From the NCBI GenBank assembly GCA_028280845.1, contig JANQKZ010000006.1, forward strand, positions 135,512 to 199,511: a stretch of 64,000 nt of DNA, written 5' to 3'. Every line of letters starts with the position of its first letter. Positions within the stretch are counted from its first letter, which is position 1. A program made the position numbers and the translations under genes. The stretch is from Opitutales bacterium. Its GTDB lineage: Bacteria; Verrucomicrobiota; Verrucomicrobiia; Opitutales; JABSRG01. Below, piece by piece: positions 7,867-27,443 of the stretch. Below the pieces are notes generated by a model. It saw only the letters and a program-made list of their open reading frames with translations. It was not told the DNA's origin and did not search any database.

Positions 7867-9183
7867 GTGAGACCCATTGACGACGAGGACATTCGAGAGG
7901 GCTTGGCAGAATTGAGGATGCTATCCCCGAGTTTGCCAGGACAGTTTTTTTCGAAACAACCCTACGAACCCCCCTGGGATCAACGATCCTTCCTCGTTCC
8001 TCTCGCCAGATTCCGCAAGGCTCTCAACATTCAAAGCCTGGAACGGGAAGCCCTTTTAAAGGATATCCGGTTCCTCCACCGTCTCCTAGCCCAATGCTAC
8101 CCGGGTTATGAACTCGGGTTGTCGGCAGGGATGAACTGGGATGGTTCCTTCGAAAACTGGAGGGATCAGGTGAGTCGAGGACCTGCTTCCATCCCTTTGA
8201 ACCTGGGATTTAAGGGATTCCAGGATATCCTGAAGCGTTGGCCTGATGTCCACACCGGCCCCCTGACGGACCAGCTTCTATCTTCCCTTAAAGCTGTGAC
8301 CCGGCTCGAACAACCCCTGGACGGACCCCACCGGGTCGCCCCCTTGTTTGACCCAAGGGAAGCTCACTTACAGCAGACCCCTTTTTATGTAGAATCCGGG
8401 GTAGCGGATCGCTTATCTTCCCCATCGGATTCGACCACTCTACCCACCTACCAGGAGCTAGGCGGCTCGTTACTCTATCTTGGTTTTCCCCGCTTTGAAC
8501 GGAACTCCCCCGCATGGTTAACCGCAAACTTATCGAAAGGCTTGGGACTCCCGAGGATCAAAGGATTAATCTTGGACTTCAGGGGAAACCTGGGCGGTGA
8601 TCTAATATTGGCTCTCAATTCCCTGAAACCCCTTTTTCCCGGATTAAATCTGTGGACAGCCTTTCGGGGACTCATCGAGATTTCCGATGCGGAGCCCTGC
8701 CATATTTCCCTCCGTCTGGGTCAGACCCTCAGCCAGGTGGCCAAGCTATCGCCTCCCTATCCCTTGGACCTTCGCGGTGGATTTGAAAACCAGGTCCTTC
8801 GCTGGAAGCAGCCCCACGTGAAACCCACCCGTCCCAGCACTTCTCAAGCCCATGTGGACGGAGCAGAGTTTCCAATTCTCGTTCTGGCCGATGGAGCAAC
8901 ATCGAGCGATGCGGAACTGTTGGTCTACGGATTCCAAAAAGTCCTCGGCGCGGTGGTGGCGGGTGAAGTCACGGCCGGGGCTATTCGGTTGATTCAGCCC
9001 GGAGCCCTCGTGTTACCCCATACCGGGGTATTGTTCCGCTTAGCCACCGCTGTGTCATACTCCATCCCCTGCTGGGGAACTGGTGTGGGCACTGGGATCG
9101 TTCCGGACATCCTGGCGCCGGAGCTAAAGACACCACAACAAGTCGAGCATCTATTCCGGCTTGCCACCGGAGACAATCCCTAG
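7867..9183 (+). CDS. S41-family (tail-specific / C-terminal processing) peptidase-like protein
   Basis: GLILDFRGNLGGD and ILVLADGATSSDAELLV match the S41 core motifs (xDLRxNxGG; Ser-containing segment). GTG start at 7867; the alternative ATG at 7918 is in frame. Confidence 0.6.
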   Translation: MRPIDDEDIREGLAELRMLSPSLPGQFFSKQPYEPPWDQRSFLVPLARFRKALNIQSLEREALLKDIRFLHRLLAQCYPGYELGLSAGMNWDGSFENWRDQVSRGPASIPLNLGFKGFQDILKRWPDVHTGPLTDQLLSSLKAVTRLEQPLDGPHRVAPLFDPREAHLQQTPFYVESGVADRLSSPSDSTTLPTYQELGGSLLYLGFPRFERNSPAWLTANLSKGLGLPRIKGLILDFRGNLGGDLILALNSLKPLFPGLNLWTAFRGLIEISDAEPCHISLRLGQTLSQVAKLSPPYPLDLRGGFENQVLRWKQPHVKPTRPSTSQAHVDGAEFPILVLADGATSSDAELLVYGFQKVLGAVVAGEVTAGAIRLIQPGALVLPHTGVLFRLATAVSYSIPCWGTGVGTGIVPDILAPELKTPQQVEHLFRLATGDNP

Positions 9184-9194
9184 AGAAAGAGTCT

Positions 9195-9701
9195 ATGCTT
9201 TCTGTTGCAGTCTGCGGTTTGCTCGGCCTTTGGTTCATGGTTTCCTGTTTAAAGCAAACCGCGCTTCCATGGGCATCTCCCCGTTTTCATACATTCAATG
9301 TGTTCGGCTTGTTGCCCAACTGGTCTCTCTTTTCGTCCAATTTTGCCGCTTATAACTACGAGCTCTGTGTACGGTATATTTCAACGGATGGACAATCCGG
9401 CAATTGGATCCCCCTCCCCTCGGGTAGCTCCCGTATTCAAGTTCCGCCGATCTGGAACCCCGAGAGAAGAATAGGAAAAGCCTATTTGGATCTCGCCCTC
9501 AAATTAATTCAACTACGATTACTGAAGAGGGATCACATCCAGTCCAGCCTCCCCTACCTCATCTGCCTGAACATGGCCTCGGCAGCCCCTTCCCCCGCAA
9601 ATGGAAAATCGCTTGAGTTTGGTTTCTTTTTACAGGAAGGCCATAACCGGGGCACCCGGAAGTTGTTCTTTTTATCATCCCGTCACCCGGTGAACCCATG
9701 A
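9195..9701 (+). CDS. Hypothetical protein, possible SdpA-family partner of the downstream HTTM-like protein
   Basis: 168 aa with an N-terminal hydrophobic segment and an LPNWSLFSS...YEL stretch reminiscent of the W-x-F-F/S motif of SdpA-family proteins. The stop overlaps the next start (ATGA). Homology is asserted from memory only. Confidence 0.3.
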   Translation: MLSVAVCGLLGLWFMVSCLKQTALPWASPRFHTFNVFGLLPNWSLFSSNFAAYNYELCVRYISTDGQSGNWIPLPSGSSRIQVPPIWNPERRIGKAYLDLALKLIQLRLLKRDHIQSSLPYLICLNMASAAPSPANGKSLEFGFFLQEGHNRGTRKLFFLSSRHPVNP

Positions 9702-10474
9702 CCGCATTGGATGCATTGGCCTGGGGGCAGACCATTCTGGTCATGGGAATCGTGCTAAGCTCCCTGGAATACCTCGCCCTTAAGCGCTGGTTTGGCGCGG
9801 GAAAGATTTTCAGAGCGATGGCCCCCTCCGGCACGGGAGTGAACAGCTTCTATGCGCTTGCTTTGGTCATGGCGACGCGCGCCCTGGCAGCTGGCCTGCT
9901 CTGCTTTACCCCGATGGATCATATGTTGCGTTCAGGGATCCTCCTCTTCCTGGTTGTAATGACACTCTGGCTTTTCCACCGTATTCCCTTTGGCCAGGAA
10001 GGCGGAGACCAGTTGACCTTGATGGCCCTGGTCCTGCTCTTCATCCAATCCCTGGATTCTCAAAACCTGATGGTCGCTCAGGCCTGCTGTCTGTTTTGGT
10101 CCGGGCAACTGGTACTGGCGTACCTCAAAACGGGCTGGATTAAATTTGCATACTCGGGATGGCGAGATGGGACGTTGTTGCAGTTACTGGGATCCAGCGA
10201 ATTGTACGGGCATCCTTTCTTACACAAAATGGTACAAACCCAAAAAGGGCAAAAAGGGGCGAGAGCTGTCCTTCTTTTTATTGAATGGGGACTTCCGCTG
10301 AGCCTGTTACTTCCCCCAAGTGTATTTTATGTCTTTTTTACACTGGCCCTGCTATTTCATTTCGCCAACGCCGTGTTCCTCGGGTTGGGCGGATTTTTCT
10401 GGGCGATGGCCGCCGTCTTTCCTTCCCTGATTGTGACGCACGGCCTTATTCAGAGGGTCCTCCAGTCGCATTAA
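9698..10474 (+). CDS. Polytopic membrane protein, HTTM/SdpB-like
   Basis: 258 aa with about 6-7 TM helices. The GQEGGDQLTLMALVLLF, QLVLAYLKTGWIKFAYSGWRDGTLL and LALLFHFANAVFLGLG segments fit the HTTM (vitamin-K carboxylase-related, SdpB-type) pattern as I recall it. Confidence 0.4.
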   Translation: MTALDALAWGQTILVMGIVLSSLEYLALKRWFGAGKIFRAMAPSGTGVNSFYALALVMATRALAAGLLCFTPMDHMLRSGILLFLVVMTLWLFHRIPFGQEGGDQLTLMALVLLFIQSLDSQNLMVAQACCLFWSGQLVLAYLKTGWIKFAYSGWRDGTLLQLLGSSELYGHPFLHKMVQTQKGQKGARAVLLFIEWGLPLSLLLPPSVFYVFFTLALLFHFANAVFLGLGGFFWAMAAVFPSLIVTHGLIQRVLQSH

Positions 10475-10478
10475 TCCG

Positions 10479-11396
10479 ATGAAGGAATACTCCGTCAACG
10501 CTGGCCCAAGGGTCCATATCCAGGAATTAGATTCCGGGACCCATGCCGCGTTTAGCCGAATGACGTTTCCCCGGTATCGTTCAAAGGTGACGGAAGTCTG
10601 TCCCACTCATCATCTTCGACTCGCCGCTTTTTCCCGGGATAAACCGATCGGGCTCTTGTTAGGTGAAATAAAAGCCCTATCCCGGGAAATGGAAATTCTG
10701 TCTCTCTTCGTCATTCAGGGAGAGCGGAGGAAGGGAGTCGCCACCGCTTTACTGCAAGAGGCAGAGCGGATTTTAGTCAGGAATAAGGTCAAATCCATGG
10801 CCCTGGTGTTTATGGAAAAGACACAAACCCCACATCCCTTACGCCCCCTCCTGGCCAGTCAGCAATGGAACTCACCGGAAATCCGTATGGTGAGCTGCTT
10901 TTCACCTAAAACCCTCCTGTCCAGGGGCCCCTGGGTGAAGCCATACGTCAACCTGAGTCCGAGGCTAGTGTTGAAAGCCTGGGTAGATTTAACCGCCGAG
11001 GAGCGCAAGTCGGTTTACCGCGAGGATGCTCCAGAAGTGCTCAAGCCAAACCCGAAAGATCGGACCCTGGAACCCGTTTCCAGTATCGTCGTCTTTGAGG
11101 GAAAGCTTCCGATTGGGTGGATGATCAATCACGAGATTGACTCCGACCGAATCCGCTTCTCCCATCTATGGGTAAGATCTGGTATCTCCCCACGACAGTT
11201 GAACGGGATCGCCCTGGTCGGACATTCGATTCATCGTTGGGCGGAATCCCCCGCCTGCCAGGCATTAGTTTTTGCCTCCATGAACTTTCAAGCCCACAAC
11301 CGACCTATGTGGAATTTTTTGACCCGGCACTTAAAACCATATCTAGATGATATTCGCTTCTCCTTTGGGGCTCGCAAAGAACTAACCGAACGATGA
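10479..11396 (+). CDS. GNAT-family acetyltransferase, two-lobed (paralog of 16501..17409)
   Basis: Acetyl-CoA-binding-type segment ILSLFVIQGERRKGVATALLQEAERIL, plus a second C-terminal lobe. The stop overlaps the lanM start (ATGA). Confidence 0.7.
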   Translation: MKEYSVNAGPRVHIQELDSGTHAAFSRMTFPRYRSKVTEVCPTHHLRLAAFSRDKPIGLLLGEIKALSREMEILSLFVIQGERRKGVATALLQEAERILVRNKVKSMALVFMEKTQTPHPLRPLLASQQWNSPEIRMVSCFSPKTLLSRGPWVKPYVNLSPRLVLKAWVDLTAEERKSVYREDAPEVLKPNPKDRTLEPVSSIVVFEGKLPIGWMINHEIDSDRIRFSHLWVRSGISPRQLNGIALVGHSIHRWAESPACQALVFASMNFQAHNRPMWNFLTRHLKPYLDDIRFSFGARKELTER

Positions 11397-14300
11397 AAAT
11401 CGAATCAGCGGATCTGCAGCAGATTGCCTCCCGGGGGCTATTTCTCCACGAAAGGATCGCCCTGAACGAAGCGTTTTCCTCCGCCTCCGAGGCCGAAAAT
11501 CCATCCTCCGTAGAGCGACGGGTTCAAGCATGGAAAAAAGCCGGAGCTGCAGGCCACGAGGATGCCTTCCACCGCCTCCTGCAAAACGATGAGCTCGACG
11601 ATCCGGATTATACCCTCCTCTTCGAAGAATCCCTTCGCCTCAAACCAGAGGCATTTCCCGACTGGGTAAACCGAGGGGAAGCCCTTCTGGAGTCTTACTC
11701 CAAGACAGCGGAACTGACTTTTGATGAACTGGAGGCGAGCCTGCCTTTTCTCAACTCTGATACCCCGGTCGCCTTTGAACACTTGCTTGGCCCCCTGGTC
11801 TGTTTTTTCGCCCGACAGGTGGAGGCGAAATGTCCTAAGCTCCTGAATTGGGTAAGTCACTCGGCATGGAATGAATATCAGCACACCTTCCTGGTCACCC
11901 TTGCCATGATCGGCTCGGAGACCCTTGGTCAGGAGTTCAGTATATTCCGGGCGGTCCGGAAAACGATGCAGGGAAAGTCACCCGGCCGGCAGCCAGGTTC
12001 GAGGGAAATATATGCCGCATTCGTCGACCATCAAAGGCGAGGTAAATTGGTCAAGACCCTGACCCGGTATCCCCTGCTCCTTCGCTATTGGATAAGCACC
12101 GGGTATCAATTCGTCCGTAACGCAGTCACATTCTTCCACCACCTGGAAACCGATTTTGCCGATATTCGGGACGAATTAAACCAAGGTAAATCCCCAGGCA
12201 AAGTGTCCAAGCTCACTCCTGGTATCTCCGATCGTCACGATGGAGGAAAGACCTCGGTCCGCGTTGAATTCGAGGACGGACTTCGGACCATATACAAAGC
12301 AAAATCCCTGGATACCGAGGTGGGATATCATCGGCTGTTGGATTGGTTGAACCAACAAGGCCTCTCTACTCCCCTGAATGGATATCATGTTATTGATAAA
12401 CAGGGACACGGTTGGGTCGAATTTGTCGATGTTCAGGCCTGCCGGAATAAGGAAGAGGTCAAGACCTACTTCACCCGGGGAGGCATGCTCCTCGCTCTTT
12501 TCTACGCCATCGAGGGCAGTGACCTTCATAATGAAAATCTCATCGCTCACGGAGCGCATCCCGTAATCGTCGACTTGGAAACCATCCTCCAGTCTCGTCC
12601 ACGATCCCTGGAGGAAAGGGGTCCCGGCCAGGCTCTCATTCAGGCAAACCAGTTTTTCTACTGGGATTCCGTTTTCCGGACTGCACTTCTGCCCCGTTGG
12701 GAAATAGGGCCTGAAGGACAGAGCTATGACATAAGTGGCCTGGGCGGAGTTCAGGAACACACCACAAGTTTTGTGCAGAAACAGTGGAAACAGATCAACT
12801 CGGACGACATGCAATTAACCCGGCAAACCTTATCGACATCGCCTAACCAGAATGTCGTCCGTTTGAACGGGACGATTCAACTGCCGTCCGATCATCGGGA
12901 AGAACTGCTTCAGGGGTTTCGGGAGATGTATGCCTTGCTTCTGGAGAAGCGGGAGGAGCTCCTGGCACCTGGTGGCCCCCTGCATAGACTGTCCCGGTGC
13001 CCGGTCCGCTTTATTCAGCGCAATACCCGGATCTATGTGACCCTTTTAAGAAAACTGGCTCTGCCTAAAAATCTAACCTTTGGGCCGGATGCCAGCATTG
13101 TGGTCGAATCCCTTGCCCGACCTTTTTTAAGCCTCGACGCACCACACCCTTACTGGCCCCTCGTGAAAGTCGAACGGGAAAATTGTTTTCACCTTGATAT
13201 TCCGCGGTTCATGGCAAATCCGGATTCAGCCGACTTGGAGATTTCCGCTGAAAAAACGCTGCCCGCCTTTTTTGAAGAGCCGGCCTGGGAGCAGGTTCAG
13301 AAACGGTTCAGGACCCTTTCTGAGGCGGATTGCGACCTTCAACAAGCCTTTATCCGATCTTCTTTTGCCAGTACGCCCAGCCAGTCACTCGAGCCACCCC
13401 CAACGGATATCAATCCAACAGCCTGGGAAAATGTGGATCCCCAGGCCTGGGAGGACGAAGCCCTGGAACTCGCAGAAAAAGCCTGCCATGCTGCCATTCG
13501 TTCCTCAGGAAATGAGGTGTCCTGGTTAACTTTGTCCTATTTTGCGGAGGCGCAACGATGGCAGGTCCAACCCATGGCCGCCCGGCTTTACGACGGGCTA
13601 TGTGGTCCCCTGGTCTTTCTCGCTGCGGCTGAGCGCGTATCCGGCGGCTCCCCGGAGTTTCGAGCCACCCTCGAAGGAACCGTGCGATCCATTTCCAGTT
13701 TTCTTCAGGACGCTTATGCTGCGCGATACCTGTTTGAGGCAGGTACGGGAGCAGGTCTGGGAGCTTCCAGCTTGATTTATGCCCTGGTTGTTGCCGGCGC
13801 CTTACTGGAAGATCGCGATACCCTGAACTTGGCTGAAAAATGCGCCTTCTGGGTCGGAGAGGACCAATGTGAGGCCGACCAGCGCAATGATTTATTGGGC
13901 GGCAATGCCGGGGCCGTCTCAGCCTTCCTGGCCCTCCATTCTGTCCGCTCCTCCGGGACCTGGATGGACCGGGCCCTCGCCTGTGGCGATCTCCTGCTGG
14001 GCCAACGGGTCAAGACGGATTCGGGATACCACACCTGGCTGACCTTGGAGAACAAACCACTCCTGGGCTTTTCCCACGGGGCCGCCGGGATCATCATGGC
14101 TTTGAGCCAGCTGGGTGAACAGTCCGGGGAAAGTCGGTACATCGAGGCGGCAGAAGAGGCCCTCGCCTATGAGAATTCATTCTTTGACGAGGAAAAAGGC
14201 AATTGGCCCGACCTGCGCTATCGACAGACCAAAGACGGGTACCACTTTACAAACCGGTGGTGCCATGGTGCGCCCGGGATTGGCTTGGGACGGCTTTACA

Positions 14301-14650
14301 CGCCCTTGCCGGGCTTGGTCGAACAGGATATCCTCCGTGCCTTGGACTGCACGAAATCGCAACCCCTTACTCCCCTGGATCATTTATGTTGCGGGAATCT
14401 TGGCCGAGCCCAGGCCCTTCAAGTGGGGGGACTCCGCACCGGGGACACAAGCCTGGTCCTATCGGCCCAGAAATTGACCCAACAAGTCTACTCCCGGGCC
14501 AGAAACCAAGGGGGTTACGGTCTGGGGCTCGCGCCCGGGCTGGACATTTTTTCCTTTCACCAGGGCCTCGCCGGGATCGGCTATCATTTCCTCTGGATGA
14601 ACCACCTGAACACCTTACCTTGTATCCTCGCATGGGAAACAACACCGTAA
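11393..14650 (+). CDS. lanM: Class II lanthipeptide synthetase (LanM), ProcM-like CCG type
   Basis: 1085 aa. The N-terminal dehydratase region carries the kinase-like loop DLHNENLIAHGAHPVIVDLETI. The C-terminal LanC-like cyclase has GFSHGAAGI, WCHGAPGIGL and DHLCCGNLG. Confidence 0.93.
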   Translation: MKIESADLQQIASRGLFLHERIALNEAFSSASEAENPSSVERRVQAWKKAGAAGHEDAFHRLLQNDELDDPDYTLLFEESLRLKPEAFPDWVNRGEALLESYSKTAELTFDELEASLPFLNSDTPVAFEHLLGPLVCFFARQVEAKCPKLLNWVSHSAWNEYQHTFLVTLAMIGSETLGQEFSIFRAVRKTMQGKSPGRQPGSREIYAAFVDHQRRGKLVKTLTRYPLLLRYWISTGYQFVRNAVTFFHHLETDFADIRDELNQGKSPGKVSKLTPGISDRHDGGKTSVRVEFEDGLRTIYKAKSLDTEVGYHRLLDWLNQQGLSTPLNGYHVIDKQGHGWVEFVDVQACRNKEEVKTYFTRGGMLLALFYAIEGSDLHNENLIAHGAHPVIVDLETILQSRPRSLEERGPGQALIQANQFFYWDSVFRTALLPRWEIGPEGQSYDISGLGGVQEHTTSFVQKQWKQINSDDMQLTRQTLSTSPNQNVVRLNGTIQLPSDHREELLQGFREMYALLLEKREELLAPGGPLHRLSRCPVRFIQRNTRIYVTLLRKLALPKNLTFGPDASIVVESLARPFLSLDAPHPYWPLVKVERENCFHLDIPRFMANPDSADLEISAEKTLPAFFEEPAWEQVQKRFRTLSEADCDLQQAFIRSSFASTPSQSLEPPPTDINPTAWENVDPQAWEDEALELAEKACHAAIRSSGNEVSWLTLSYFAEAQRWQVQPMAARLYDGLCGPLVFLAAAERVSGGSPEFRATLEGTVRSISSFLQDAYAARYLFEAGTGAGLGASSLIYALVVAGALLEDRDTLNLAEKCAFWVGEDQCEADQRNDLLGGNAGAVSAFLALHSVRSSGTWMDRALACGDLLLGQRVKTDSGYHTWLTLENKPLLGFSHGAAGIIMALSQLGEQSGESRYIEAAEEALAYENSFFDEEKGNWPDLRYRQTKDGYHFTNRWCHGAPGIGLGRLYTPLPGLVEQDILRALDCTKSQPLTPLDHLCCGNLGRAQALQVGGLRTGDTSLVLSAQKLTQQVYSRARNQGGYGLGLAPGLDIFSFHQGLAGIGYHFLWMNHLNTLPCILAWETTP

Positions 14651-15561: not shown

Positions 15562-15596
15562 AAAAAAGCAGGATCGGAAATCCTGCCTTTTGATTT
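15560..15596. terminator. Bidirectional rho-independent terminator between the LLM gene and the precursor operon
   Basis: The A-run at 15560-15567 is followed by the hairpin gcaggat-cggaa-atcctgc at 15568-15586 and then cttttgattt. Read on the minus strand, the hairpin is followed by T8. Confidence 0.75.
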
Positions 15597-15618
15597 AAAC
15601 TGAATGAAGGCCTGGGAA

Positions 15619-15999
15619 CTAGACGCAACCGCCAACCGCGCCCACACCGGGATAACCAATGCTAACGGTTGAGGTCACCGCACAAGAGGCTGCACAGGAT
15701 GCTGCGCACCGCGCGCCCCCTGCTACCTGTTCCAACTCACTATCGGAGAGTTCTTCGTCCTCATCGACAGGCTCATCGAGAATGATATTCACGAGCGCAC
15801 CCTTACCATCGTGAAACTTGACCGAGATCCCATCCGGAACGGGTTTGGCCGATTGCTCCATGATGGCCGCCTGGGGATCGCTCAGGGCTTTTTCTCGAAA
15901 AGCAGCATCGGTACGGGCACGTTCAATGGTGGAACGAAGCAGGTCCTCAATATCACGCGGTTCCCAATTCGGACTAGCCGCACTATCGAAGTCTGACAT
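15619..15999 (-). CDS. NHLP-leader lanthipeptide precursor A1 (core 15622..15714)
   Basis: 126 aa. The leader ...AFREKALSDPQAAIMEQSAKPVPDGISVKFHDGKGALVNIILDEPVDEDEELSDSELEQVAGG fits the nitrile-hydratase-like leader (NHLP) pattern and ends in a double glycine. The core is ARCAASCAASCAVTSTVSIGYPGVGAVGGCV. Confidence 0.88.
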   Translation of the reverse strand: MSDFDSAASPNWEPRDIEDLLRSTIERARTDAAFREKALSDPQAAIMEQSAKPVPDGISVKFHDGKGALVNIILDEPVDEDEELSDSELEQVAGGARCAASCAASCAVTSTVSIGYPGVGAVGGCV

Positions 16000-16001
16000 G
16001 A

Positions 16002-16334: not shown

Positions 16335-16500
16335 AAGGTATCCTTACTAGAGGTTAATTCGTGGTGTTTAAGAATTGAGATAGCGACAGAATGGATTTTC
16401 TGTAGCTGGAAGTGTTAGGGCATCTTTGCCTGTGTAAAGGTTGAATTTAACCTACTATGCCCTATTAGCCCCCCTGTTGAGTTTTCATGGTTTATTTACA

Positions 16501-17409: not shown

Positions 17410-17425
17410 TTTCCCCACATAGTCC

Positions 17426-19310: not shown

Positions 19311-19311
19311 T

Positions 19312-20955
19312 ATGCATATAGCCAGGATTCAGCCTGCTCGCTTGCTATCCCGAATCTCACCTTGGATCATCCTTCTGGCGTGGTCCTGTACGGGAGTCGG
19401 CCAAGCGCGGAACGACCCGAATCCCCTGCAGATTGATCGTTCGATCCCGGCTCCGGATGATCTTCCCCAGTCCAGATTGGTCGGGCCCACGGCTCCTCCC
19501 GGGCCGTTGACCCTCGAAGATGTGATCCGAATCAGTCTGGAGTCCAATGTGGAGATCCTCGTTCGCCAAGAGGACGTCATCATCGCGGACGCCCAACTGC
19601 AGCAGGTCTCTTCCGTGTTTAACCCGCAGATTGACGCCACCCTGGATAGCAACGAAACCCGGGTGAACTCCGCGCTCTCGACCGCTCCGGAAGATCTTTT
19701 TATTTCCGAGTCGGAAACGTCCACCTACTCTCTCGCCGTCACCAAAACCTTCCGCAGCGGGATTTCTCTCACCCCCAGCCTGGAATACGATTTATCTGCA
19801 TCCAATACGGACGGATTGGTGCCTTCCAACCGCGGCATCTGGCAACTGAACATCACGGTTCCCTTACTGAAAGGATTCGGCAGAATCGCCACAGCTGGAA
19901 AGGAGCTGGCGGCCCAGAAAAATGTAGAAGCCGTGCAGTTTGCCTATGAGCATACACTGTCCGAGCAACTCTCCCTGGTCGTCGCGGCTTACTGGAGTTA
20001 CCTCTCGGCCGCCCGAAATCTCGATATTCTTCAAAGGGCAGAACAGCGGGGCGAACTGCTCCTCCGACAGACCGAAGCCCTGATCGAGGCAAATCAACTG
20101 CCTGCCGCCGAAATCAGTAAATCCCAGGCCGATTTATCCGCCCGCCGCGCTGACCGCTCCAGGGGAGAACTCAGCCTCTTTTCGGCTAGGCGCAACTTGG
20201 GGCTCCTCATGGGACTATCCAAAGAAACGGTCACTACCCTAACGGAACCCTCCACCCCGTTCACGATTGTCCCCCCGGTAGACCCAACTTCCCTCCTTGA
20301 TCAAAGTGAACGCTACGTCGATTTGGCTCTGCAACAACGCCGGGATTTACAAGCTGCGGCTGGACAGACTAAGGCGACTGAGGTGTTGAGAAAGCAAGCC
20401 GAAGCCCTGGATAAAATCCAGGTCGACTTCACCTTGGGGGTTGGCTATTCGGGCTATTCCCCAGGGCGTTCTTTCAGCGCCAAACCGGAATCCTTTTACC
20501 GGCATCTCGAAGGGCCCAGTTATGAGGCGACCTTCAACATCGGTTGGGGCTGGAATCGCAACCTCGAAAAAGGAACCTTGCGCGAACGGCTCTCCCGGGA
20601 AGCCCAGGCCCGCTATGCGGAAGTCCAGCTGGAACGCGAGATCTACTCCGGGGTGATCCGAGCCTTAGAAAACTTGAGGACCGCTTCCCTCACCCTGGAA
20701 GAATCTAACAAGGCTCAACTGCTTTTCCAGAAATCGCTCGAATTAGAGGCTCAAAAGCTCCAGTTGGGCCAAGCTACCATTATTGATGTCATCAACCTGC
20801 AGGAACGCCTGACCCAGGCGGAACTCGAGTTGACTCAGGCTCAGCTTCAATACGTCAATGCCATCGTCGAGCTTCGTTTTCAAACCGGAACCCTCCTGAA
20901 TCTACAGGAGGATATGTTTCAATTAAACCAGGATGCCCTGACGACCCTCCCCTAG
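19312..20955 (+). CDS. TolC-family outer-membrane efflux protein
   Basis: Signal-like N-terminus, LTLEDVIRISLESNVEILVRQEDV... and two long coiled-coil repeat halves typical of OEP/TolC. The ATG at 19312 lies 1 nt after the JmjC stop; the track start at 19276 overlaps it. Confidence 0.85.
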   Translation: MHIARIQPARLLSRISPWIILLAWSCTGVGQARNDPNPLQIDRSIPAPDDLPQSRLVGPTAPPGPLTLEDVIRISLESNVEILVRQEDVIIADAQLQQVSSVFNPQIDATLDSNETRVNSALSTAPEDLFISESETSTYSLAVTKTFRSGISLTPSLEYDLSASNTDGLVPSNRGIWQLNITVPLLKGFGRIATAGKELAAQKNVEAVQFAYEHTLSEQLSLVVAAYWSYLSAARNLDILQRAEQRGELLLRQTEALIEANQLPAAEISKSQADLSARRADRSRGELSLFSARRNLGLLMGLSKETVTTLTEPSTPFTIVPPVDPTSLLDQSERYVDLALQQRRDLQAAAGQTKATEVLRKQAEALDKIQVDFTLGVGYSGYSPGRSFSAKPESFYRHLEGPSYEATFNIGWGWNRNLEKGTLRERLSREAQARYAEVQLEREIYSGVIRALENLRTASLTLEESNKAQLLFQKSLELEAQKLQLGQATIIDVINLQERLTQAELELTQAQLQYVNAIVELRFQTGTLLNLQEDMFQLNQDALTTLP

Positions 20956-20992
20956 GTCTGATGAAACACACTATGATGAAAGGTTGGCTGAC

Positions 20993-22249
20993 ATGGATCC
21001 CATGAAGAAAATTTTCAGGCAAAAATCGCTCGATAAAATCTCGTCTCCCGAGCGCCTGGACGAACTCATGCAGGTTACGAGTCCCCGCCTCTGGATAGCC
21101 CTGCTTACCCTGGGGATCCTCCTGGCCTTTACTCTGGTCTGGGGCGTATTCGGGAGAATCCCCCAAAAGGTTCACGGTCGGGGCATCCTGATCAAAACTG
21201 AGGGACTCTACACCGTGACCACTGAAGGGGCCGGACGGGTTGTGGAAATCTCAGTCAAACCCGGAGAATCCATCGAGACGGGACAGCACATAGCCCGGGT
21301 GGAAGACCCGAATATGCAAAAATTAATCAAAGACGGAAAGGCAAATCTAGCCCGCCTGCAGGAAGTCCACAACACACTCGTCGAGTTCAACCACCGTGAA
21401 GTGAAACTCAAACAGGAATCCATTGATAGGCAGAAAGTCGGCCTGGAAAACACTTTGGATTCGCTGAATCGTAAGGCGTCCTACTTGAAGGAACAACTGA
21501 AGACATTTGACAAACTCTTGGAGGAAGGACTCGTCACCACCAAAACGCGACAACAAACCAACCTCGAAATTCTTCAAGTCGAACTGCAGATCGAGGAAAA
21601 CCACAACAAAATCAGTAACCTGGTGTTGGCCCGGGAGGAAGTGGAAAGCCAGTCGACTCAAGAGATTCAACAATCACAAACTCAGTTGGAGACAGAGCGG
21701 CGTCGGTTAGAGGAACAGGAATTAGCTTACGAGAGAGAAGCCGCCGTGGTCTCCCCCTATTCCGGGAATGTCCTGGAAGTACTCGTCGACCAGCACCAGT
21801 TAGTTGGAGTGGGGAATTCCGTCATCAATTTGGAGTTAACCGGACAGGATTTGACTGTGAGCTTCTTCATCCCTGACACGGAAGGGAAGAAGGTTCGCGA
21901 GGGCTCAGTAATCCAGGTATCCCCGACCACCGTAAAAAAAGAACGCTACGGCGTGCTGCTCGGCGAAGTTGTCAGTATTTCGGAGTTTCCGGCGACCCCT
22001 GTCTTCATGATGCATATCCTTCAGAACAAGGAACTCGTTCATGAAATGGCCCAGACTGGTGATCAATTTGCCGGCGTAGCCTCCATCCAGAAAGATAGCA
22101 ACACCCCGAGCGGGTTTCGATGGTCCTCCGCCCAAGGCCCACCCAAGCAATTATACGCCGGGACGATTTGCGAAGTGAGTGTCGTGACCGAAGAGACGCC
22201 CCCCATCTCCCTCGTCATTCCCTTCCTCCGAAAGCTGTTCGGTTTATAA
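20993..22249 (+). CDS. HlyD-type membrane fusion protein, NHLM bacteriocin-system secretion protein type
   Basis: FRQKSLDKISSPERLDELMQVTSPRLWIALLTLGILL N-terminus, a long coiled coil and a C-terminal beta-barrel region, as in TIGR03794-type adaptors. First ATG at 20993; the track opens at a TTG at 20984. Confidence 0.82.
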   Translation: MDPMKKIFRQKSLDKISSPERLDELMQVTSPRLWIALLTLGILLAFTLVWGVFGRIPQKVHGRGILIKTEGLYTVTTEGAGRVVEISVKPGESIETGQHIARVEDPNMQKLIKDGKANLARLQEVHNTLVEFNHREVKLKQESIDRQKVGLENTLDSLNRKASYLKEQLKTFDKLLEEGLVTTKTRQQTNLEILQVELQIEENHNKISNLVLAREEVESQSTQEIQQSQTQLETERRRLEEQELAYEREAAVVSPYSGNVLEVLVDQHQLVGVGNSVINLELTGQDLTVSFFIPDTEGKKVREGSVIQVSPTTVKKERYGVLLGEVVSISEFPATPVFMMHILQNKELVHEMAQTGDQFAGVASIQKDSNTPSGFRWSSAQGPPKQLYAGTICEVSVVTEETPPISLVIPFLRKLFGL

Positions 22250-22253
22250 GCCC

Positions 22254-24464
22254 ATGGCGGATTCAGACACAACACAGCCAGATTTTAAGCCGTCTATGGT
22301 GAAGAAAAAGCGGAGGATCAAGACCCCTTCGGTTCTTCAAATGGAGGCCGTGGAGTGTGGAGCTGCCTCCCTGTCCATGATTCTAGGTCATTACCATTAC
22401 CGGGAATCGCTGGAGCGCCTTCGGGTCGAGTGTGGAGTTACCCGGGACGGCAGCAAAGCCAGCAACTTGCTCAAGGCGGCCCGCCGCTATGGCTTGAACG
22501 CAAAAGGCTACCGGAAAGAGCCGCAGCAGTTGGCAGATATGCCCCTCCCCATGGTGGTATTCTGGAATTTTAATCACTTCCTCGTCCTGGAAGGTTTCGG
22601 TTCCAAGTGGGTTTATTTAAATGATCCGGCCACCGGTCCCCGCAAGGTAACTTATGCCGAGTTTGACGACAGCTTTACAGGAGTCGCGCTGACCTTCGAA
22701 CCGGGTGAAGACTTTAAAGCAGGCGGAGAAAAACCCAGCTTCATCAACTCCCTGAGAAGACGCCTCCGGGGATCCGAGCTAGGACTCGGCTTCCTAGTAT
22801 TAGCCACGCTCTTTCTGGTCATCCCGGGACTGGTTGTTCCAGCCTTCAGCAAAATATTTATCGACCAGATTCTGATTATGGGCAGGCAGGAATGGCTGCG
22901 TCCCCTCCTGCTGGCCATGATCATTGCTCTTGGTATCCAGACGACTTTATTTTATCTGCAAAAACAGTCGCTTCGCCGCCTCGAAGTCAAGTTGGCCATC
23001 AAGATGTCGAGTGAGTTTTTCAGGCGAGTCCTCAGCCTGCCGGTTCAATTCTTCCAGCAGCGCTTTGCCGGGGAGATTGCCAACCGGGTTGCCCTCAATG
23101 ATCGAATTGCCCAATTACTATCCGGAGAGCTGGCCACCAATACCGTCGGTTTAGGCCTACTGGTGTTTTACGGCTCAGTGATGCTGCTCTACGACTGGGT
23201 ACTTGCCCTGGTCGCCATCGGGGTCGCAGCCAGCAATCTCGTTGTCCTGAAATTCATCTCCCGCAAGCGGAGGGACATCAACGCCCGCCTCTTACAGGAT
23301 CAAGGCAAACTGGCGGGCTCTACCATGGCCGGCCTCCAGATTATAGAAAGCCTGAAAGCCAGCGGAACAGAGGGGAATTTCTTTTCTCAATGGGCCGGCT
23401 ACCAGGTCAAATTTCTGAACGGAATGCAGGGTCTTGGCGTAACCAACCAACTGCTCGCGGTTCTGCCTACTACCCTGCAGGCATTCAACACTGCATTGAT
23501 CCTGGGCCTGGGCGGGTATCGAGTCATGGAAGGTGTCCTCAGCATGGGAGACTTGGTGGCCTTTCAGGTCCTGATGGGCAACTTCACCAAACCGGTTAAT
23601 GAGTTTGTCAAGCTGGGCAGCTCACTCCAGGAAGTGGATGGCAATCTCAAGCGCCTGGACGATGTCCTCAAAAACAAACCCGTAGTTGAGTTTATCGAGC
23701 CCGAAAGCAAACCGGATGCCGGGGACATGAAGGTTCCGATCGAAATGACGGGGCTGGTGGACATCCGCAACCTTTCCTTTGGGTATTCTCCGTTGGATCC
23801 TCCCTTTATCGATAACTTTAACCTTACGGTGCGACCGGGAGAACGGGTGGCTCTGGTAGGTCCCTCCGGATGCGGGAAGTCGACCCTCGCGAAAATTGTC
23901 AGCGGCCTCTACGATCCCTGGACGGGTGAAATCCTCTTCGATGGATTTGCCCGGAGCGAGTATCCCCGCCATTTGTTTACCGACTTCTTCGCCGCGGTGG
24001 ACCAGGATATCTTTCTTTTTGACGGCACCATCAGAGACAACCTCACCCTATGGGACAAAACGGTTTCCCAGCAGGATATGATCTTCGCCTGCAAGGACGC
24101 CTGCATTCATGACATCATTTCCGAGCGATCCGGAGCTTATGAAGGTGTCGTGGCAGAAGGAGGGAGAAACTTCAGCGGGGGGCAACGCCAACGCCTGGAA
24201 ATTGCCCGGGCCTTAATCAGGAACCCGCGGGTCCTCATCCTCGACGAAGCGACCAGCGCCCTCGATCCGGCGACCGAACGCCAGATCGATGAGAATCTGC
24301 GGAGGCGTGGATGCTCCTGTATCATTATTGCCCACCGCCTGAGTACCATTCGGGACTGTGATCAGATCCTGGTGCTCCAACGCGGCAAAGTCGTTCAACA
24401 TGGAGATCACAACAGCCTGATGATGGAGCAGGACGGCATCTACGCCAATTTGGTCAACCTCTAA
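22254..24464 (+). CDS. Bacteriocin ABC transporter with N-terminal C39 peptidase (NHLM peptidase/ATP-binding type)
   Basis: The C39 domain has its catalytic Cys in LQMEAVECGAASLSMILGHY and its His in NFNHFLVLEG. It has a 6-TM domain, Walker A GPSGCGKST, signature FSGGQRQRLEIARAL and Walker B VLILDEATSALD. Confidence 0.9.
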   Translation: MADSDTTQPDFKPSMVKKKRRIKTPSVLQMEAVECGAASLSMILGHYHYRESLERLRVECGVTRDGSKASNLLKAARRYGLNAKGYRKEPQQLADMPLPMVVFWNFNHFLVLEGFGSKWVYLNDPATGPRKVTYAEFDDSFTGVALTFEPGEDFKAGGEKPSFINSLRRRLRGSELGLGFLVLATLFLVIPGLVVPAFSKIFIDQILIMGRQEWLRPLLLAMIIALGIQTTLFYLQKQSLRRLEVKLAIKMSSEFFRRVLSLPVQFFQQRFAGEIANRVALNDRIAQLLSGELATNTVGLGLLVFYGSVMLLYDWVLALVAIGVAASNLVVLKFISRKRRDINARLLQDQGKLAGSTMAGLQIIESLKASGTEGNFFSQWAGYQVKFLNGMQGLGVTNQLLAVLPTTLQAFNTALILGLGGYRVMEGVLSMGDLVAFQVLMGNFTKPVNEFVKLGSSLQEVDGNLKRLDDVLKNKPVVEFIEPESKPDAGDMKVPIEMTGLVDIRNLSFGYSPLDPPFIDNFNLTVRPGERVALVGPSGCGKSTLAKIVSGLYDPWTGEILFDGFARSEYPRHLFTDFFAAVDQDIFLFDGTIRDNLTLWDKTVSQQDMIFACKDACIHDIISERSGAYEGVVAEGGRNFSGGQRQRLEIARALIRNPRVLILDEATSALDPATERQIDENLRRRGCSCIIIAHRLSTIRDCDQILVLQRGKVVQHGDHNSLMMEQDGIYANLVNL

Positions 24465-24467
24465 GCC

Positions 24468-27443
24468 ATGCCCACCTCTCGCACCACTGATACCAGAACC
24501 CCCTTTTACCGGGAAGCGGATCCCTTGGTTCGCGCCCTTTTCGAGAGCCGGGGAGAACGGTCCGACTTGCCTGGAAATGCTCCCATACTCCTCGATTCTT
24601 ATGCTGCCTGGCTGGTCGAGAAGGGCCAAGTCGAACTCTTTTCGGTTGAGGTAGAAGAGGGACAGCCGGTTGGGGCACGCAGTCACCTCCTCACCTTGCC
24701 CCAGGGCAGGATTTTCCTCGGCATGGGGGAATCGATTAACGAGGGCTTACTAGCGGTCGGTGGAACCAACACCCGAATCATCCGTCTCCCGCGCGAGGTC
24801 ATTCGAGATGCGATCAAAGAAGATAGTACGCGCCCTGTCGTGATTGAGCAGCTGAAACTCTGGGTCTTACAACTGAACCTTAGTATCGCCGAACCGCTAT
24901 CCCGAGACCCCGACCATAGAGTGAAACCGGGAAACCCGCTCCAGGCCCAGGCCGGCCAAACCATGGTGACGGCAAACGACCTACTCTGGCTTCGGATCCA
25001 TACGGGTTCGGTCGCGTTTGATGCAAACCTCGATGTGGCTTGGGCAGACCCGTCGCTCTGGCTTCCCTTAACCCCCAGACGCGTCCTGGTTCCCATCGAA
25101 AACTGTATTTTTGAGGCGGTCACGACCGAGGATCTCGCCAGTCGCGAAGGACAGGTATTGTGGGACAGCCTCCAGGCCTTCTATCACCAGCTCTTTGAGA
25201 TTCGTGCCCGCCTGCGGGAAGGGGACACGGCCAGAGAACTGGAACGCTTAAAACAGCAGGAGGAATACGCCAGGGTCGCTGCCGAAACCGCATACGATCA
25301 CCTGGTCGCCGCCCTGGGGAAAAAAGATAAAGCTATCCTCGCTCGCTACAAGGCCATGTCCGCCAGTCCGGTCTTTCATGCAGCAGGCCTCGTCGCCCAC
25401 CACCAGGGAATCGAGATTAGCTTACCGAAAGGACTCGACGAAGTGGGGACTACCGGCAGTCCAGTGGATATGATTTTGAGAGCGTCCCGCTTGAAGGCGC
25501 GAAAAGTGGCCTTGCGCGGCGAGTGGTGGAAAGCATCTCATGGCCCTCTCCTGGCACGCATGGAGACAGATAACCGGCCCGTGGCCCTCATCCCTCATGG
25601 ACCGGACCGCTACTTACTCCACGATCCCGTCGACGATAGTACCGTGGCCGTGACCGATAAAGTGGCTTACGCCGTGACCCCCTTCGCGACCTCCTTTTAC
25701 AAACCACTTCCCGAGAAGCCCCTGAAATATCGGGACCTCCTTACCTTCGTCTATAAAGACTGCATGTGGGAATCGCGCTGGATCTTTCTCCTCTCTTTCG
25801 CTGGCGGGGTGTTGGGTCTCGTTGCCCCCTGGGCCACGGGGATCATTTTTGATACGATCATTCCTGCGGTCGAATACAGCCAGCTGCTTTACCTGACTCT
25901 CGGGATGTTGTTCGCTGTGGGAGGTGCTGGGGCCTTCAATTTCCTGCGCAATATTCTGGTCCTGCGCACCGAAGGAATCTTCGACGTAAAGCTCCAGCCG
26001 GCCTTGTTCGACCGCCTCCTGCGCCTCCCCGTGGACTTTTACCGAAACTACACCGCCGGGGATCTGGCCGAACGCGCCCGGACCATTAACATGATTCGCG
26101 AGGTGTTTTCAGGCAGTATGGTCAATTCCATCATGAGTGGTCTGCTCGGCTTTCTCGCAATTGGCCTCATGCTCAGTTACAACGTAAAATTGACCCTCGT
26201 TGGAATCGGCCTCGGTTTATTCGCCGCCTGCTTTACCTTTATCACCAGCTACCTTAAACTCCACTACGAACGACGAATTCTGGCCCTGGAGGGCAAAACG
26301 CAAGGTCTCGTGTTACAGCTCTTGACGGGGATATCGAAGCTGCGGAATGCGGGAGCCGAGGTGCATGCCTTTTCCTCCTGGACCAAAACCTTCAGCCGTC
26401 AAAAGCAGCTCGACTACAAGGCCAGGGGGTATGACAACGTGGTCTCCATTTTTGCCGAGACCTACATCCTGGCGTGCAGCATCATCATCTTTTTCATGCT
26501 GTTCGAATTCGCCCAGAATGATCCTTCTCAGATCCTGTCAACCGGGAAGTTCCTCGCTTTCAGCGCCGCCTTTGGCCTGTTCATTGGAGGCGTCCTCGGG
26601 ATTGCCCAGTCCTTCGTCCAAGTCATCAACATCGGGCCCATGCTGGCCCGCATTCAGCCGATCCTGGAAAGCGTACCGGAGTCGAATGCCGACGCCATGG
26701 ATCCACCGGAACTCACCGGACGGATTGAACTGAGCCGGATCCGCTTCCGATACAATCCCCAAGATCCCCTGGTGATCAAAGATGTCAGCCTGACTATCCT
26801 CCCTGGCGAATTTGTGGCCTTCGTCGGTCCTTCAGGATCAGGAAAATCCACCATCATGCGCCTCCTCCTCGGGTTCAATCGTCCCGAAAAAGGAAGCATC
26901 CATTACGACAACTACGACTTGGCCAGCCTTGATGTTTCCGGCGTTCGGCGCCAGATGGGGCCTGTCCTGCAAAACGGCCAGCTCCTTCCGGGCGACATCT
27001 ATTCCAATATCATCGGCGCTCGATCCCTCAGTGAACAGGATGCTTGGCAGGCGGCTAAACTGGCCGGGGCCGATACCGAAATCGCCGCCATGCCGATGGG
27101 AATGCATACCCTGGTGAATCCATCGGCCACGACCTTGTCAGGTGGTCAAATCCAGCGCCTTCTGATTGCCCGAGCCATCGCCTCGAATCCCAAAATTTTC
27201 CTCCTGGATGAAGCCACCAGCGCCTTGGACAATCGCTCCCAAGCTGTTGTGACCGAAAGTCTGGATCGTATGAAGGTCACACGGGTCGTCATCGCCCACC
27301 GCCTGAGCACTATCATGAACGCAGACAAAATTTTCGTCATCGTGAAAGGCGAGCTCGTCGAACAAGGGGATTACCATTCCCTTATGCGTCAAAACGGCGT
27401 CTTCGCCGAATTGGCCCGCCGCCAAATGGTGGACGAGGAATAG
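24468..27443 (+). CDS. Second bacteriocin-export ABC permease/ATPase (NHLM ATP-binding type) with an N-terminal extension of about 400 aa
   Basis: 991 aa. C-terminal ABC exporter with Walker A GPSGSGKST, signature LSGGQIQRLLIARAI and Walker B IFLLDEATSALD. There is no C39 Cys motif. The N-terminal soluble region (…AAWLVEKGQVELFSVEVEEGQPVGARSHLLTLPQGRIF…) looks like a cNMP-binding-type beta-roll. Confidence 0.85.
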   Translation: MPTSRTTDTRTPFYREADPLVRALFESRGERSDLPGNAPILLDSYAAWLVEKGQVELFSVEVEEGQPVGARSHLLTLPQGRIFLGMGESINEGLLAVGGTNTRIIRLPREVIRDAIKEDSTRPVVIEQLKLWVLQLNLSIAEPLSRDPDHRVKPGNPLQAQAGQTMVTANDLLWLRIHTGSVAFDANLDVAWADPSLWLPLTPRRVLVPIENCIFEAVTTEDLASREGQVLWDSLQAFYHQLFEIRARLREGDTARELERLKQQEEYARVAAETAYDHLVAALGKKDKAILARYKAMSASPVFHAAGLVAHHQGIEISLPKGLDEVGTTGSPVDMILRASRLKARKVALRGEWWKASHGPLLARMETDNRPVALIPHGPDRYLLHDPVDDSTVAVTDKVAYAVTPFATSFYKPLPEKPLKYRDLLTFVYKDCMWESRWIFLLSFAGGVLGLVAPWATGIIFDTIIPAVEYSQLLYLTLGMLFAVGGAGAFNFLRNILVLRTEGIFDVKLQPALFDRLLRLPVDFYRNYTAGDLAERARTINMIREVFSGSMVNSIMSGLLGFLAIGLMLSYNVKLTLVGIGLGLFAACFTFITSYLKLHYERRILALEGKTQGLVLQLLTGISKLRNAGAEVHAFSSWTKTFSRQKQLDYKARGYDNVVSIFAETYILACSIIIFFMLFEFAQNDPSQILSTGKFLAFSAAFGLFIGGVLGIAQSFVQVINIGPMLARIQPILESVPESNADAMDPPELTGRIELSRIRFRYNPQDPLVIKDVSLTILPGEFVAFVGPSGSGKSTIMRLLLGFNRPEKGSIHYDNYDLASLDVSGVRRQMGPVLQNGQLLPGDIYSNIIGARSLSEQDAWQAAKLAGADTEIAAMPMGMHTLVNPSATTLSGGQIQRLLIARAIASNPKIFLLDEATSALDNRSQAVVTESLDRMKVTRVVIAHRLSTIMNADKIFVIVKGELVEQGDYHSLMRQNGVFAELARRQMVDEE

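Follow-up and report, generated by a model that had tools for sequence, protein, structure and literature searches.

A probable selidamide-type, two-component lipo-lanthipeptide gene cluster in an Opitutales bacterium

Introduction

Selidamides are ribosomal lipopeptides, for which three pathways have been characterized so far. Two selidamide pathways that combine a nitrile-hydratase-like leader peptide (NHLP) with a class II lanthipeptide synthetase (LanM), ksp and pha, have been reconstituted (Hubrich et al. 2022, PMC8784127). The ksp set, which yields kamptornamide, comprises a precursor, the GNAT KspN, the arginase KspR and the LanM KspM, while the pha set, which yields phaeornamide, adds to these an Fe/2-oxoglutarate (2OG) hydroxylase, PhaI (PF08007), and a C39 exporter (PMC8784127). 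The order of the reactions is conversion of arginine to ornithine, gamma-hydroxylation of the ornithine, and fatty acylation of its delta-nitrogen by the GNAT, with lanthionine formation being independent (PMC8784127). The acylated residue is located at core position 1 in kamptornamide and at position 2 in phaeornamide, whose ring joins Cys4 to Thr7 (PMC8784127). Here, we analyze a set of 15 genes at positions 7867-27443 of a stretch of 64,000 nucleotides (hereafter, the window) from contig JANQKZ010000006.1 of an Opitutales bacterium, and compare it with these pathways.

The gene set is likely to be a biosynthetic gene cluster (BGC) for lipo-lanthipeptides of the selidamide type, probably with two components, and by analogy with the reconstituted pathways its product pair most likely carries fatty-acylated ornithine. 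According to its profile matches, it is classified among the class II lanthipeptide clusters that have NHLP/NHLM-type export, with a tailoring core of the selidamide (pha-like) type. The gene identities, the integrity of the motifs, the synteny and the conservation presented below are direct observations. Relatives include loci from the 80 returned by an arginase-alignment scan of species-representative genomes, which were considered with 10-kb flanks; individual loci are identified by the letter L and a number.

The lanthipeptide synthetase and the two precursors

The synthetase and precursor genes are as follows.

11393-14650, plus strand: LanM, class II lanthipeptide synthetase, 1085 aa (TIGR03897, DUF4135, LANC_like)
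15619-15999, minus strand: beta precursor, 126 aa; NHLP-type leader ending in ELSDSELEQVAGG, core ARCAASCAASCAVTSTVSIGYPGVGAVGGCV
16002-16334, minus strand: alpha precursor, 110 aa; NHLP-type leader ending in ELSDSELEQVAGG, core VGDGNRCGGSCAASCVVSQGF

The LanM scores 750.7 bits against TIGR03897 (cut-off 304), 350 bits against DUF4135 (PF13575) and 153 bits against LANC_like (PF05147). Its cyclase zinc-ligand motifs, WCHG (residue 957) and CCG (residue 999), form what we take to be a ProcM-like three-Cys zinc arrangement. Over its full length, the protein is 32% identical (E 2e-152) to the KspM orthologue of L024, a Kamptonema sp. locus whose core RRRGGSSRVITNTPGVPGCN matches the published KspA features, namely four Arg, Thr11, Cys19 and Asn20.

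Both leaders end in the Gly-Gly motif VAGG. A preliminary description of the window, made from its letters, had identified them as NHLP leaders. Both precursors align with TIGR03793 along its full length at E values near 1e-12, which agrees with that identification, yet their scores of 48.0 bits for the beta precursor (E 8e-13) and 45.9 bits for the alpha precursor (E 4e-12) lie under the cut-off of 50.9. Given that the orthologous leaders in relatives score 44-55 bits and KspA-type leaders 90-94 bits, these profile scores are read as those of divergent NHLP-clan leaders at the threshold, rather than as failures of the model.

The alpha core contains three Cys and three Ser, and the beta core four Cys and six Ser/Thr. 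Only one Arg occurs per core, at position 2 in beta (A-R-C-A-A-S-C...) and at position 6 in alpha (...N-R-C-G-G-S-C...), and in both cases the next residue is the first Cys. The alpha cores belong to the type x-R-C-G-G-S-C-x-x-S-C..., and the beta cores to the type x-R-C-x-A-S-C-A-A-S-C-x-V-T-S-T-V-S-x-G-x-P-G-V-G-A-V-G-G-C-x. From this spacing, three tandem rings between Cys(i) and dehydroalanine (Dha) at i+3 would use all three Cys and all three Ser of the alpha core, and in the beta core three rings of this kind could form together with one large ring at the C terminus, with two dehydro residues left.

The alpha and beta types occur together in the window, L001, L003/L004, L087, L013 (Caulobacteraceae), L034 (Pseudohaliea rubra) and L038 (Alteromonadaceae), that is, in at least six lineages. 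Given that two distinct cores are co-conserved with a single LanM, their distribution suggests a two-component product. Two-component lantibiotics produced by a single LanM include cytolysin, bicereucin and roseocin. Alpha leaders from different lineages are 57-63% identical to one another, while the identity of alpha to beta leaders is 42-49%.

The probable selidamide-type tailoring enzymes

Four genes encode the enzymes that correspond to the selidamide tailoring core.

10479-11396, plus strand: GNAT_A, 305 aa, selidamide-type acyltransferase paralogue, co-operonic with LanM (PF00583, 33.4 bits)
16441-17409, plus strand: GNAT_B, selidamide-type N-acyltransferase (PF00583, 49.5 bits)
17426-18355, plus strand: peptide arginase, PF12640/UPF0489 (PF12640, 47.6 bits)
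18348-19310, plus strand: JmjC/cupin Fe(II)/2OG oxygenase (Cupin_8, 99.7 bits; JmjC_2 PF08007, 28.2 bits)

Peptide arginases convert Arg residues of the cores of peptides that are ribosomally synthesized and modified post-translationally (RiPPs) into ornithine (PMC12703449). What the preliminary description had called a UPF0489/arginase-like protein is more specifically an enzyme of this kind, with its metal-binding motifs intact: EEHHEAF, DEHSD and IDED are all present, at invariant columns of a 22-sequence alignment. It is 30% identical to the L024 arginase (E 5e-36). Against NF052474, the model of the FlmR/OhkR family, it scores 164 bits, under the cut-off of 350. Taken together, the profile scores place it as a PF12640 peptide arginase outside the FlmR/OhkR subfamily.

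The oxygenase keeps the HxD...H triad (H175, D177 and H247), along with K192, and these residues are kept in 22 homologues. Its gene comes next after that of the arginase, a placement also found in five N-R-I-M clusters of proteobacteria, and it shares PF08007 with PhaI. By this analogy, it is a candidate ornithine hydroxylase in the PhaI position. The pha-like order GNAT-arginase-oxygenase-LanM is found in the proteobacterial loci L013, L028, L034, L035 and L038, and the window has the GNAT_B-arginase-oxygenase part of it.

GNAT_B measures 322 aa if it starts at the TTG at 16441, and 302 aa if it starts at the ATG at 16501. With the KspN orthologue of L024 it shares 35% identity (E 1e-51), and GNAT_A shares 30% with the same protein (E 3e-32). 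In a neighbour-joining tree, built without bootstrap, GNAT_B groups with KspN-like and acidobacterial GNATs, and GNAT_A forms a clade with its orthologues of L001, L003 and L004, apart from GNAT_B. Each of the two clades is kept between the Opitutaceae and Vicinamibacteria clusters. The tree thus points to GNAT_A being a second, anciently diverged paralogue.

Selidamide GNATs were shown to accept only precursors bearing the cognate leader (PMC13647313), and the three selidamide-clade GNATs assayed so far all transfer C10-C16 chains (PMC8784127). Given the separate GNAT clades, this own-leader specificity and the distinct, conserved lineage of alpha leaders, the reading we favour, as a hypothesis, is that each GNAT would serve one leader and peptide type. 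The number of GNATs equals the number of Arg-bearing core types in the window, L001, L003/L004, L087, L034 and L038.

Export system and operon structure

The export genes close the cluster.

19276-20955, plus strand: TolC-like outer-membrane factor, OEP (PF02321, 106 bits, two stretches)
20984-22249, plus strand: HlyD-type adaptor of NHLP bacteriocin systems (TIGR03794, 322 bits, cut-off 156)
22254-24464, plus strand: C39-peptidase ABC exporter (TIGR03796, 1068 bits, cut-off 853; Peptidase_C39, 121 bits)
24468-27443, plus strand: second ABC exporter subunit of NHLP systems (TIGR03797, 843 bits, cut-off 709, residues 300-987)

All three NHLP export models exceed their cut-offs and a TolC-like protein is present, so that the export set is complete. 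The C39-peptidase exporter is predicted, from its domain, to cleave after the Gly-Gly motif. In the second exporter, the N-terminal extension of 300 aa (24468-25370) received no Pfam assignment in the family scan. The likely start of the outer-membrane factor is M13 (position 19312), and a signal-like sequence comes after it.

All open reading frames (ORFs) were found intact in an ORF map, as six genes on the plus strand, two on the minus strand and seven on the plus strand. The first run (7867-15561) has junctions of +11, -4, +4, -4 and -19 nt, with the start of its last gene fixed at 14632, and a hairpin lies at its end.

15568-15586, plus strand: terminator-like hairpin, found by consensus scan only, closing the first operon

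The second run (16441/16501-27443) begins with junctions of +16 and -8 nt, continues with +1 nt when the outer-membrane factor starts at M13, and ends with +28/+37, +4 and +3 nt; its range of -8 to +37 nt varies with the start codon chosen. The precursor pair lies on the minus strand between the two runs. Hence, the earlier claims of two tight plus-strand operons bracketing the precursors and, given the LanM and export models over their cut-offs together with the outer-membrane factor, of a complete NHLP-type class II lanthipeptide cluster are both borne out. Base composition is uniform over the region, and a sigma-70 consensus scan yielded no clear promoter for the precursors.

The luciferase-like oxidoreductase

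The last gene of the first operon encodes a flavoenzyme.

14632-15561, plus strand: luciferase-like oxidoreductase (LLM), MsnO8-family flavin oxidoreductase, 309 aa (PF00296; TIGR03558, 179 bits, cut-off 167)

Its best match in the PDB is 4us5, an epoxidase-type MsnO8 (3.5e-29), and its gene lies directly 3' of that of LanM in L001, L082, L087 and L089. In birimositide, a two-component lantibiotic, the reduction of Dha to D-Ala is the work of a luciferase-like enzyme, and such enzymes have been named LanJC (PMC7268733). By analogy, the LLM is a candidate LanJC-type dehydroalanine reductase, a role that the surplus of Ser/Thr over Cys in the beta core (6 vs 4) would fit.

The S41-like protein, orf168 and the HTTM protein

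The first three genes of the cluster form an accessory module.

7867-9183, plus strand: S41-like protein, 438 aa (PF03572, 38.5 bits, cut-off 24)
9195-9701, plus strand: orf168, 168-aa protein with an N-terminal transmembrane helix, of no known family
9698-10474, plus strand: orf258, HTTM / vitamin-K-carboxylase-fold polytopic membrane protein, 258 aa

The S41-like peptidase, the two GNATs, the LLM and the JmjC oxygenase had all been named in the preliminary description, and each is supported by a family match (PF03572, PF00583, TIGR03558 and Cupin_8/JmjC, respectively). In an alignment with CtpA, however, the nucleophile Ser347 of the S41-like protein is retained, but Ala (TAGA) stands where the TFGKG motif has its Lys, and the protein thus lacks the Ser/Lys dyad of canonical S41 peptidases. 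No signal peptide is seen in the protein, and because of this a role as a periplasmic second-step protease is disfavoured. Five cluster-associated homologues share an invariant H129, in DxH(T/S)GP, as well as DxRGNxGG, S347-D-x-E and T-A-G. A Ser/His dyad with His129, presumably as in NSR or tricorn, is conceivable.

The distribution of the alpha cores bears on the role of this protein. Alpha cores with a spacer of 3-5 residues, ending in Asn, before R-C (VGDGN, GGSGN, GDAN and VGNNN in the set of the window, L001, L003/L004 and L087) are found only where an S41-like gene is present, and the alpha cores of L013, L034 and L038, whose clusters have no such gene, begin directly with (S)RC. This restriction of the spacer to S41-bearing clusters hints at trimming.

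Related S41 proteins without the Lys, of the FlmF type, directly follow the arginases in more than 20 flm/ohk-type loci of Bacteroidota (e.g., L055 10827-12845 and L030 10867-12840). They are about 650 aa long, have Cys at the position of the nucleophile Ser (T-A-C-x-S-E) and no dyad Lys, and FlmF is annotated merely as "peptidase". From these residues, FlmF-type proteins may make up a subfamily of S41 that uses a Cys nucleophile or is non-proteolytic, and that is linked to RiPPs containing ornithine.

Homologues of orf168 are always encoded just 5' of an HTTM gene, in L001, L003/L004, L082 (twice), L087, L091 and L092, and this arrangement points to an obligate upstream partner of the HTTM gene. 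Neither orf168 nor its homologues matched Pfam or NCBIfam at E<=10, and an AlphaFold2 (AF2) model of orf168 (pLDDT 72.8) gave no fold match in the PDB, the best TM-score being 0.30. The label "SdpA-like" was rejected for orf168 on account of these results.

Although a word-indexed protein search with orf258 returned only the protein itself, a full-library HMMER search returned 1546 relatives; PF05090 (HTTM) is matched by 16 of 40 aligned relatives. The AF2 model of orf258 has a pLDDT of 93.4, and the top ten Foldseek matches in the PDB are all GGCX (TMq 0.64-0.68, prob 1.0), with non-GGCX matches at TMq <=0.30. The family transitivity and the predicted fold together confirm membership in the HTTM superfamily. 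An HTTM-family profile run against PDB sequences gave no match at E<=10. Residue K149, in the motif AGxAKxxxxxWRxG, is nearly invariant among the relatives. Against the SdpB model TIGR04033, orf258 reaches 16.5 bits (E 0.005), far under the cut-off of 178.4. Hence, the SdpA/SdpB(HTTM)-like pair of the preliminary description stands in its HTTM half, with a weak SdpB signal, and its SdpA half has no sequence support.

Gamma-carboxylation of Glu by the HTTM protein was considered and judged unlikely, since Glu is absent from all cores. We infer that the S41-like, orf168 and HTTM triad would act either in late processing or maturation, by analogy with SdpAB, which matures the SDP toxin, or in self-protection.

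Conservation among relatives

The closest locus is L001, from an Opitutaceae metagenome-assembled genome (MAG; the same locus was also retrieved as L002). All 15 genes are present there, in the same order and orientation, with amino-acid identities of 40-91%, and the flanks differ: L001 has an ISL3 fragment downstream and no GT4 gene upstream.

More distant relatives are found in Vicinamibacteria MAGs (L003, L004, L082 and L089) and on a GC-rich metagenome contig (L087). The unit GNAT_A-LanM-LLM and the S41-like gene are common to these loci, which also have the small-protein/HTTM pair, in two copies in Vicinamibacteria. The run precursors-GNAT_B-arginase is likewise found in them, followed by the oxygenase gene except in L087. 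The exporters are seen in L004; the remaining loci end short of that region.

The tailoring genes thus do co-occur in the neighbourhoods of LanM homologues: all are syntenic in L001, and the accessory genes recur in the Vicinamibacteria MAGs and the metagenome contig. This repeated occurrence of the accessory genes, along with the LLM, in clusters that are syntenic shows that their adjacency is not fortuitous. Conversely, because proteobacterial clusters with alpha and beta precursors have none of them within 10 kb, the S41-like, HTTM and LLM genes appear accessory to the basic scaffold.

Some relatives carry genes of their own. The Vicinamibacteria clusters have two large B12-dependent radical S-adenosylmethionine-like genes and a DUF7005 protein, and L087 has an M28 peptidase, with three alpha precursors and one beta. 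The coordinates of these features of the relatives, the two copies of the small-protein/HTTM pair included, are L082 3622-4901, 10001-11238, 11232-13178 and 19595 onward; L004 13791-15011; and L087 10277-11140.

Flanking regions

The 5' flank (miaA and a GT4 glycosyltransferase) and the 3' flank (a RimK-like ligase/RloB/RloA triad) consist of ordinary chromosomal genes outside the cluster. The GT4 glycosyltransferase (6679-7842, plus strand), whose best NCBIfam match is N-acetylglucosaminyl phosphatidylglycerol synthase, ends 24 nt before the S41-like gene, with which it may be co-transcribed; it is not kept upstream of the syntenic L001 cluster. The triad (27507-30569, minus strand) abuts the cluster and encodes an alpha-L-glutamate ligase-like protein related to RimK (TIGR02291, 442 bits), an inactive-transglutaminase/7TM membrane protein resembling RloB, and a retropepsin-like peptidase of the RloA type. 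Since it is absent downstream of the L001 cluster, the triad is placed outside the BGC.

Two further features lie downstream. An MMPL/RND-type transporter with a sterol-sensing-like region (44458-47271, plus strand) is fused C-terminally to a cyclic-nucleotide-binding domain. A low-GC patch at 50001-52813, with a GC of 0.44 where the rest has about 0.54, contains the gene for a homologue of the lipid A deacylase LpxR (50176-51249, minus strand) and a 191-aa ORF without assignment, and adjoins the sole tRNA gene of the window, tRNA-Asp at 52737-52813. This patch could be a small acquired island.

Discussion

Every chemical step proposed for the cluster is drawn by analogy from the reconstituted pha and ksp pathways. 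Two NHLP-leader precursors, alpha and beta, each present a single Arg before the first Cys of C-x-x-S-C-x-x-S-C. The ProcM-like LanM would dehydrate Ser/Thr and close the thioethers, probably as tandem Cys(i)-Dha(i+3) rings, similar to the one that phaeornamide has between Cys4 and Thr7. The PF12640 arginase would convert the core Arg to ornithine, the JmjC/2OG oxygenase would hydroxylate the ornithine, and a GNAT would place a fatty acyl group on the side-chain nitrogen. The LLM flavoenzyme may reduce surplus dehydro residues to D-amino acids, in the manner of LanJC. Finally, the C39-ABC/ABC/HlyD/TolC-like system would cut after the Gly-Gly motif and export the product over both membranes.

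Several points weigh against this proposal. Both precursors score slightly under the TIGR03793 cut-off (48.0 and 45.9 vs 50.9), and beta leaders are 44-52% identical across lineages, barely above the alpha-vs-beta identity. The arginase is under the NF052474 cut-off, and the putative orthology of the oxygenase with PhaI rests on Pfam family and gene order. L013, of Caulobacteraceae, has one GNAT within 10 kb, yet Arg in both core types, a possible counter-example that weakens the idea of one GNAT per peptide. The acyl group could be acetyl rather than fatty acyl. The S41-like protein has neither the canonical Lys nor a signal peptide, and the proteobacterial alpha/beta clusters have no S41, HTTM or LLM genes within 10 kb. 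As for the LLM, known LanJC enzymes are actinobacterial, and at least one of them, LxmJ, reportedly uses F420H2, a cofactor not expected in this host.

The question of the acyl group leads to an alternative that we hold to be unlikely, in which the cluster is selidamide-like but the GNATs add acetyl or another short acyl group, or GNAT_A targets a different nucleophile, such as the new hydroxyl or an amino terminus, so that the product is not a true lipopeptide. Acetyl-CoA is what most GNATs use, the deep paralogue GNAT_A has an identity of only about 30% with the KspN orthologue, and two GNATs are encoded for one Arg per core; however, GNAT_B groups with KspN-like enzymes, and C10-C16 chains are transferred by all three selidamide-clade GNATs that were assayed (PMC8784127). 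Far less credible is a wholly unprecedented tailoring, with the GNATs, the arginase-like and the JmjC proteins performing chemistry outside any characterized pathway. No named product was found for the cluster or its closest relatives, and the S41, orf168 and HTTM genes are without a characterized RiPP role. Yet a GNAT, a PF12640 arginase, a 2OG oxygenase, a LanM and NHLP genes constitute the logic reconstituted for pha and ksp, the window proteins are homologous to those of the ksp cluster, and the cores have the expected single Arg acceptor. The preliminary description had placed the whole combination outside the characterized NHLP pathways. This is too broad for the GNAT, PF12640, 2OG, LanM and C39 genes, which are those of the published pha cluster, and for the LLM, which has a precedent in LanJC (PMC7268733), but it still applies to the S41-like gene, the small-protein/HTTM pair and the second GNAT, which are still uncharacterized.

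The triad admits the most serious rival reading, possible if somewhat doubtful, in which the S41-like, small-protein and HTTM genes provide immunity or resistance, or serve membrane maintenance in general and are merely carried along with the cluster. Family scans of the window found no immunity genes of the LanI/LanFEG type, the PDB matches of the S41-like protein include the S41 peptidase NSR, a lantibiotic resistance protein (4y68), and proteobacterial alpha/beta clusters manage without the triad. The small-protein/HTTM pair also occurs on contigs without visible lanthipeptide genes, though these contigs are short. Against this reading, the S41-like protein has no signal peptide, and the alpha spacer before R-C accompanies only S41-like genes, which hints at processing. 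As to what such processing might be, we regard it as an improbable but attractive idea that the HTTM protein and orf168, possibly with the S41-like protein, carry out a novel, membrane-embedded late maturation of the lipo-lanthipeptide, possibly dependent on a quinone and oxygen. If true, this would give the first defined reaction and substrate for bacterial HTTM proteins, including the mechanistically unexplained SdpB. That the adjacency is fortuitous, or that the cluster is decayed or silent, is scarcely believable: although the promoter scan found no clear precursor promoter, none of the 15 ORFs is broken, neighbouring genes overlap or nearly abut, the catalytic motifs are kept, and synteny extends across two phyla (25-91% identity) with different flanks.

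A selidamide-type, two-component reading therefore remains the one we prefer, and several consequences would follow from it. The cluster would extend the selidamides to a Verrucomicrobiota-type host and to two-peptide and dual-acyltransferase formats. If it is true that each GNAT reads one leader and attaches its own chain, this would be useful for engineering gene-encoded lipopeptides. The presence of an HTTM-fold protein beside small, defined peptide substrates offers a tractable route to bacterial HTTM function, and the recurrent pairing of a Lys-less S41 protein with a peptide arginase, in the window and in flm/ohk loci, points to an unrecognized partnership in ornithine-containing RiPPs. 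In the literature searched, these cores, this gene set and its new features are nowhere described.

Comparison with known systems

On the sequence features examined, the window proteins fall outside the SdpAB family, the FlmR/OhkR subfamily of arginases and the S41 peptidases with the canonical Ser/Lys dyad, since the defining features of each were tested for and found wanting. The orphan "DD(I/V)LF" RiPP clusters flm and ohk of Bacteroidota (PMC12703449) resemble the window in having an arginase and a Lys-less S41 protein, FlmF being encoded directly downstream of FlmR. They differ in their precursor family, in having neither LanM nor GNAT, and in the size (about 650 aa) and the Cys nucleophile position of FlmF. 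In Bacillus subtilis sdpABC, SdpA and SdpB must be present for SdpC to be processed to the SDP toxin. The likeness of sdpABC/yitPOM lies in a small-protein gene followed by that of an HTTM-family membrane protein, near the gene for a secreted peptide; unlike sdpABC, the window has no SdpA match, orf258 scores below the cut-off of the SdpB model, and the substrate would be exported by the ABC/C39 system instead of Sec.

Two-component lantibiotics share with the window the presence of two distinct, co-conserved cores in one cluster, although the window cores are unrelated to the lacticin 3147, haloduracin and mersacidin types. Birimositide (PMC7268733) offers a further parallel, a luciferase-like enzyme beside LanM, which there leads from Ser to D-Ala via Dha; in contrast to its LanJC, the window LLM is a member of the MsnO8 family (TIGR03558), which is of the FMN type, and has a Gram-negative host.

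In comparison with ksp, the GNAT_B, LanM and arginase of the window are 30-35% identical to the L024 proteins, and the leader ends are alike (ELEQVAGG in the window; ELEAVAGG, ELESVAGG or ELEAIAGG in L024). However, ksp has no hydroxylase and no exporter, has four Arg per core and a single large methyllanthionine ring, and its leaders score 90-94 bits on TIGR03793, against 46-48 for the window.

The closest system is pha, from Pseudophaeobacter arcticus DSM 23566, which, like the window, has an NHLP precursor, a LanM, a GNAT, a PF12640 arginase, a PF08007-family hydroxylase and a C39 exporter. The acceptor Arg is at position 2 in both PhaA and the window beta core, with Cys nearby, and the CxxS/T spacing of the window fits the Cys4-Thr7 ring of phaeornamide. 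Whereas pha has one precursor type, the window has two that are conserved, as well as two GNAT paralogues, and its genes form two operons, the precursors lying on the opposite strand. Further additions are the LLM, the S41-like gene, the small-protein/HTTM pair and a TolC-like gene, in a Verrucomicrobiota-like host. Thus four or five conserved genes go beyond the selidamide logic, and what is new in comparison with the described systems is the format with two peptides, the presence of two GNATs, the conserved module of S41-like, small and HTTM proteins along with the LLM, and the Verrucomicrobiota-type host.

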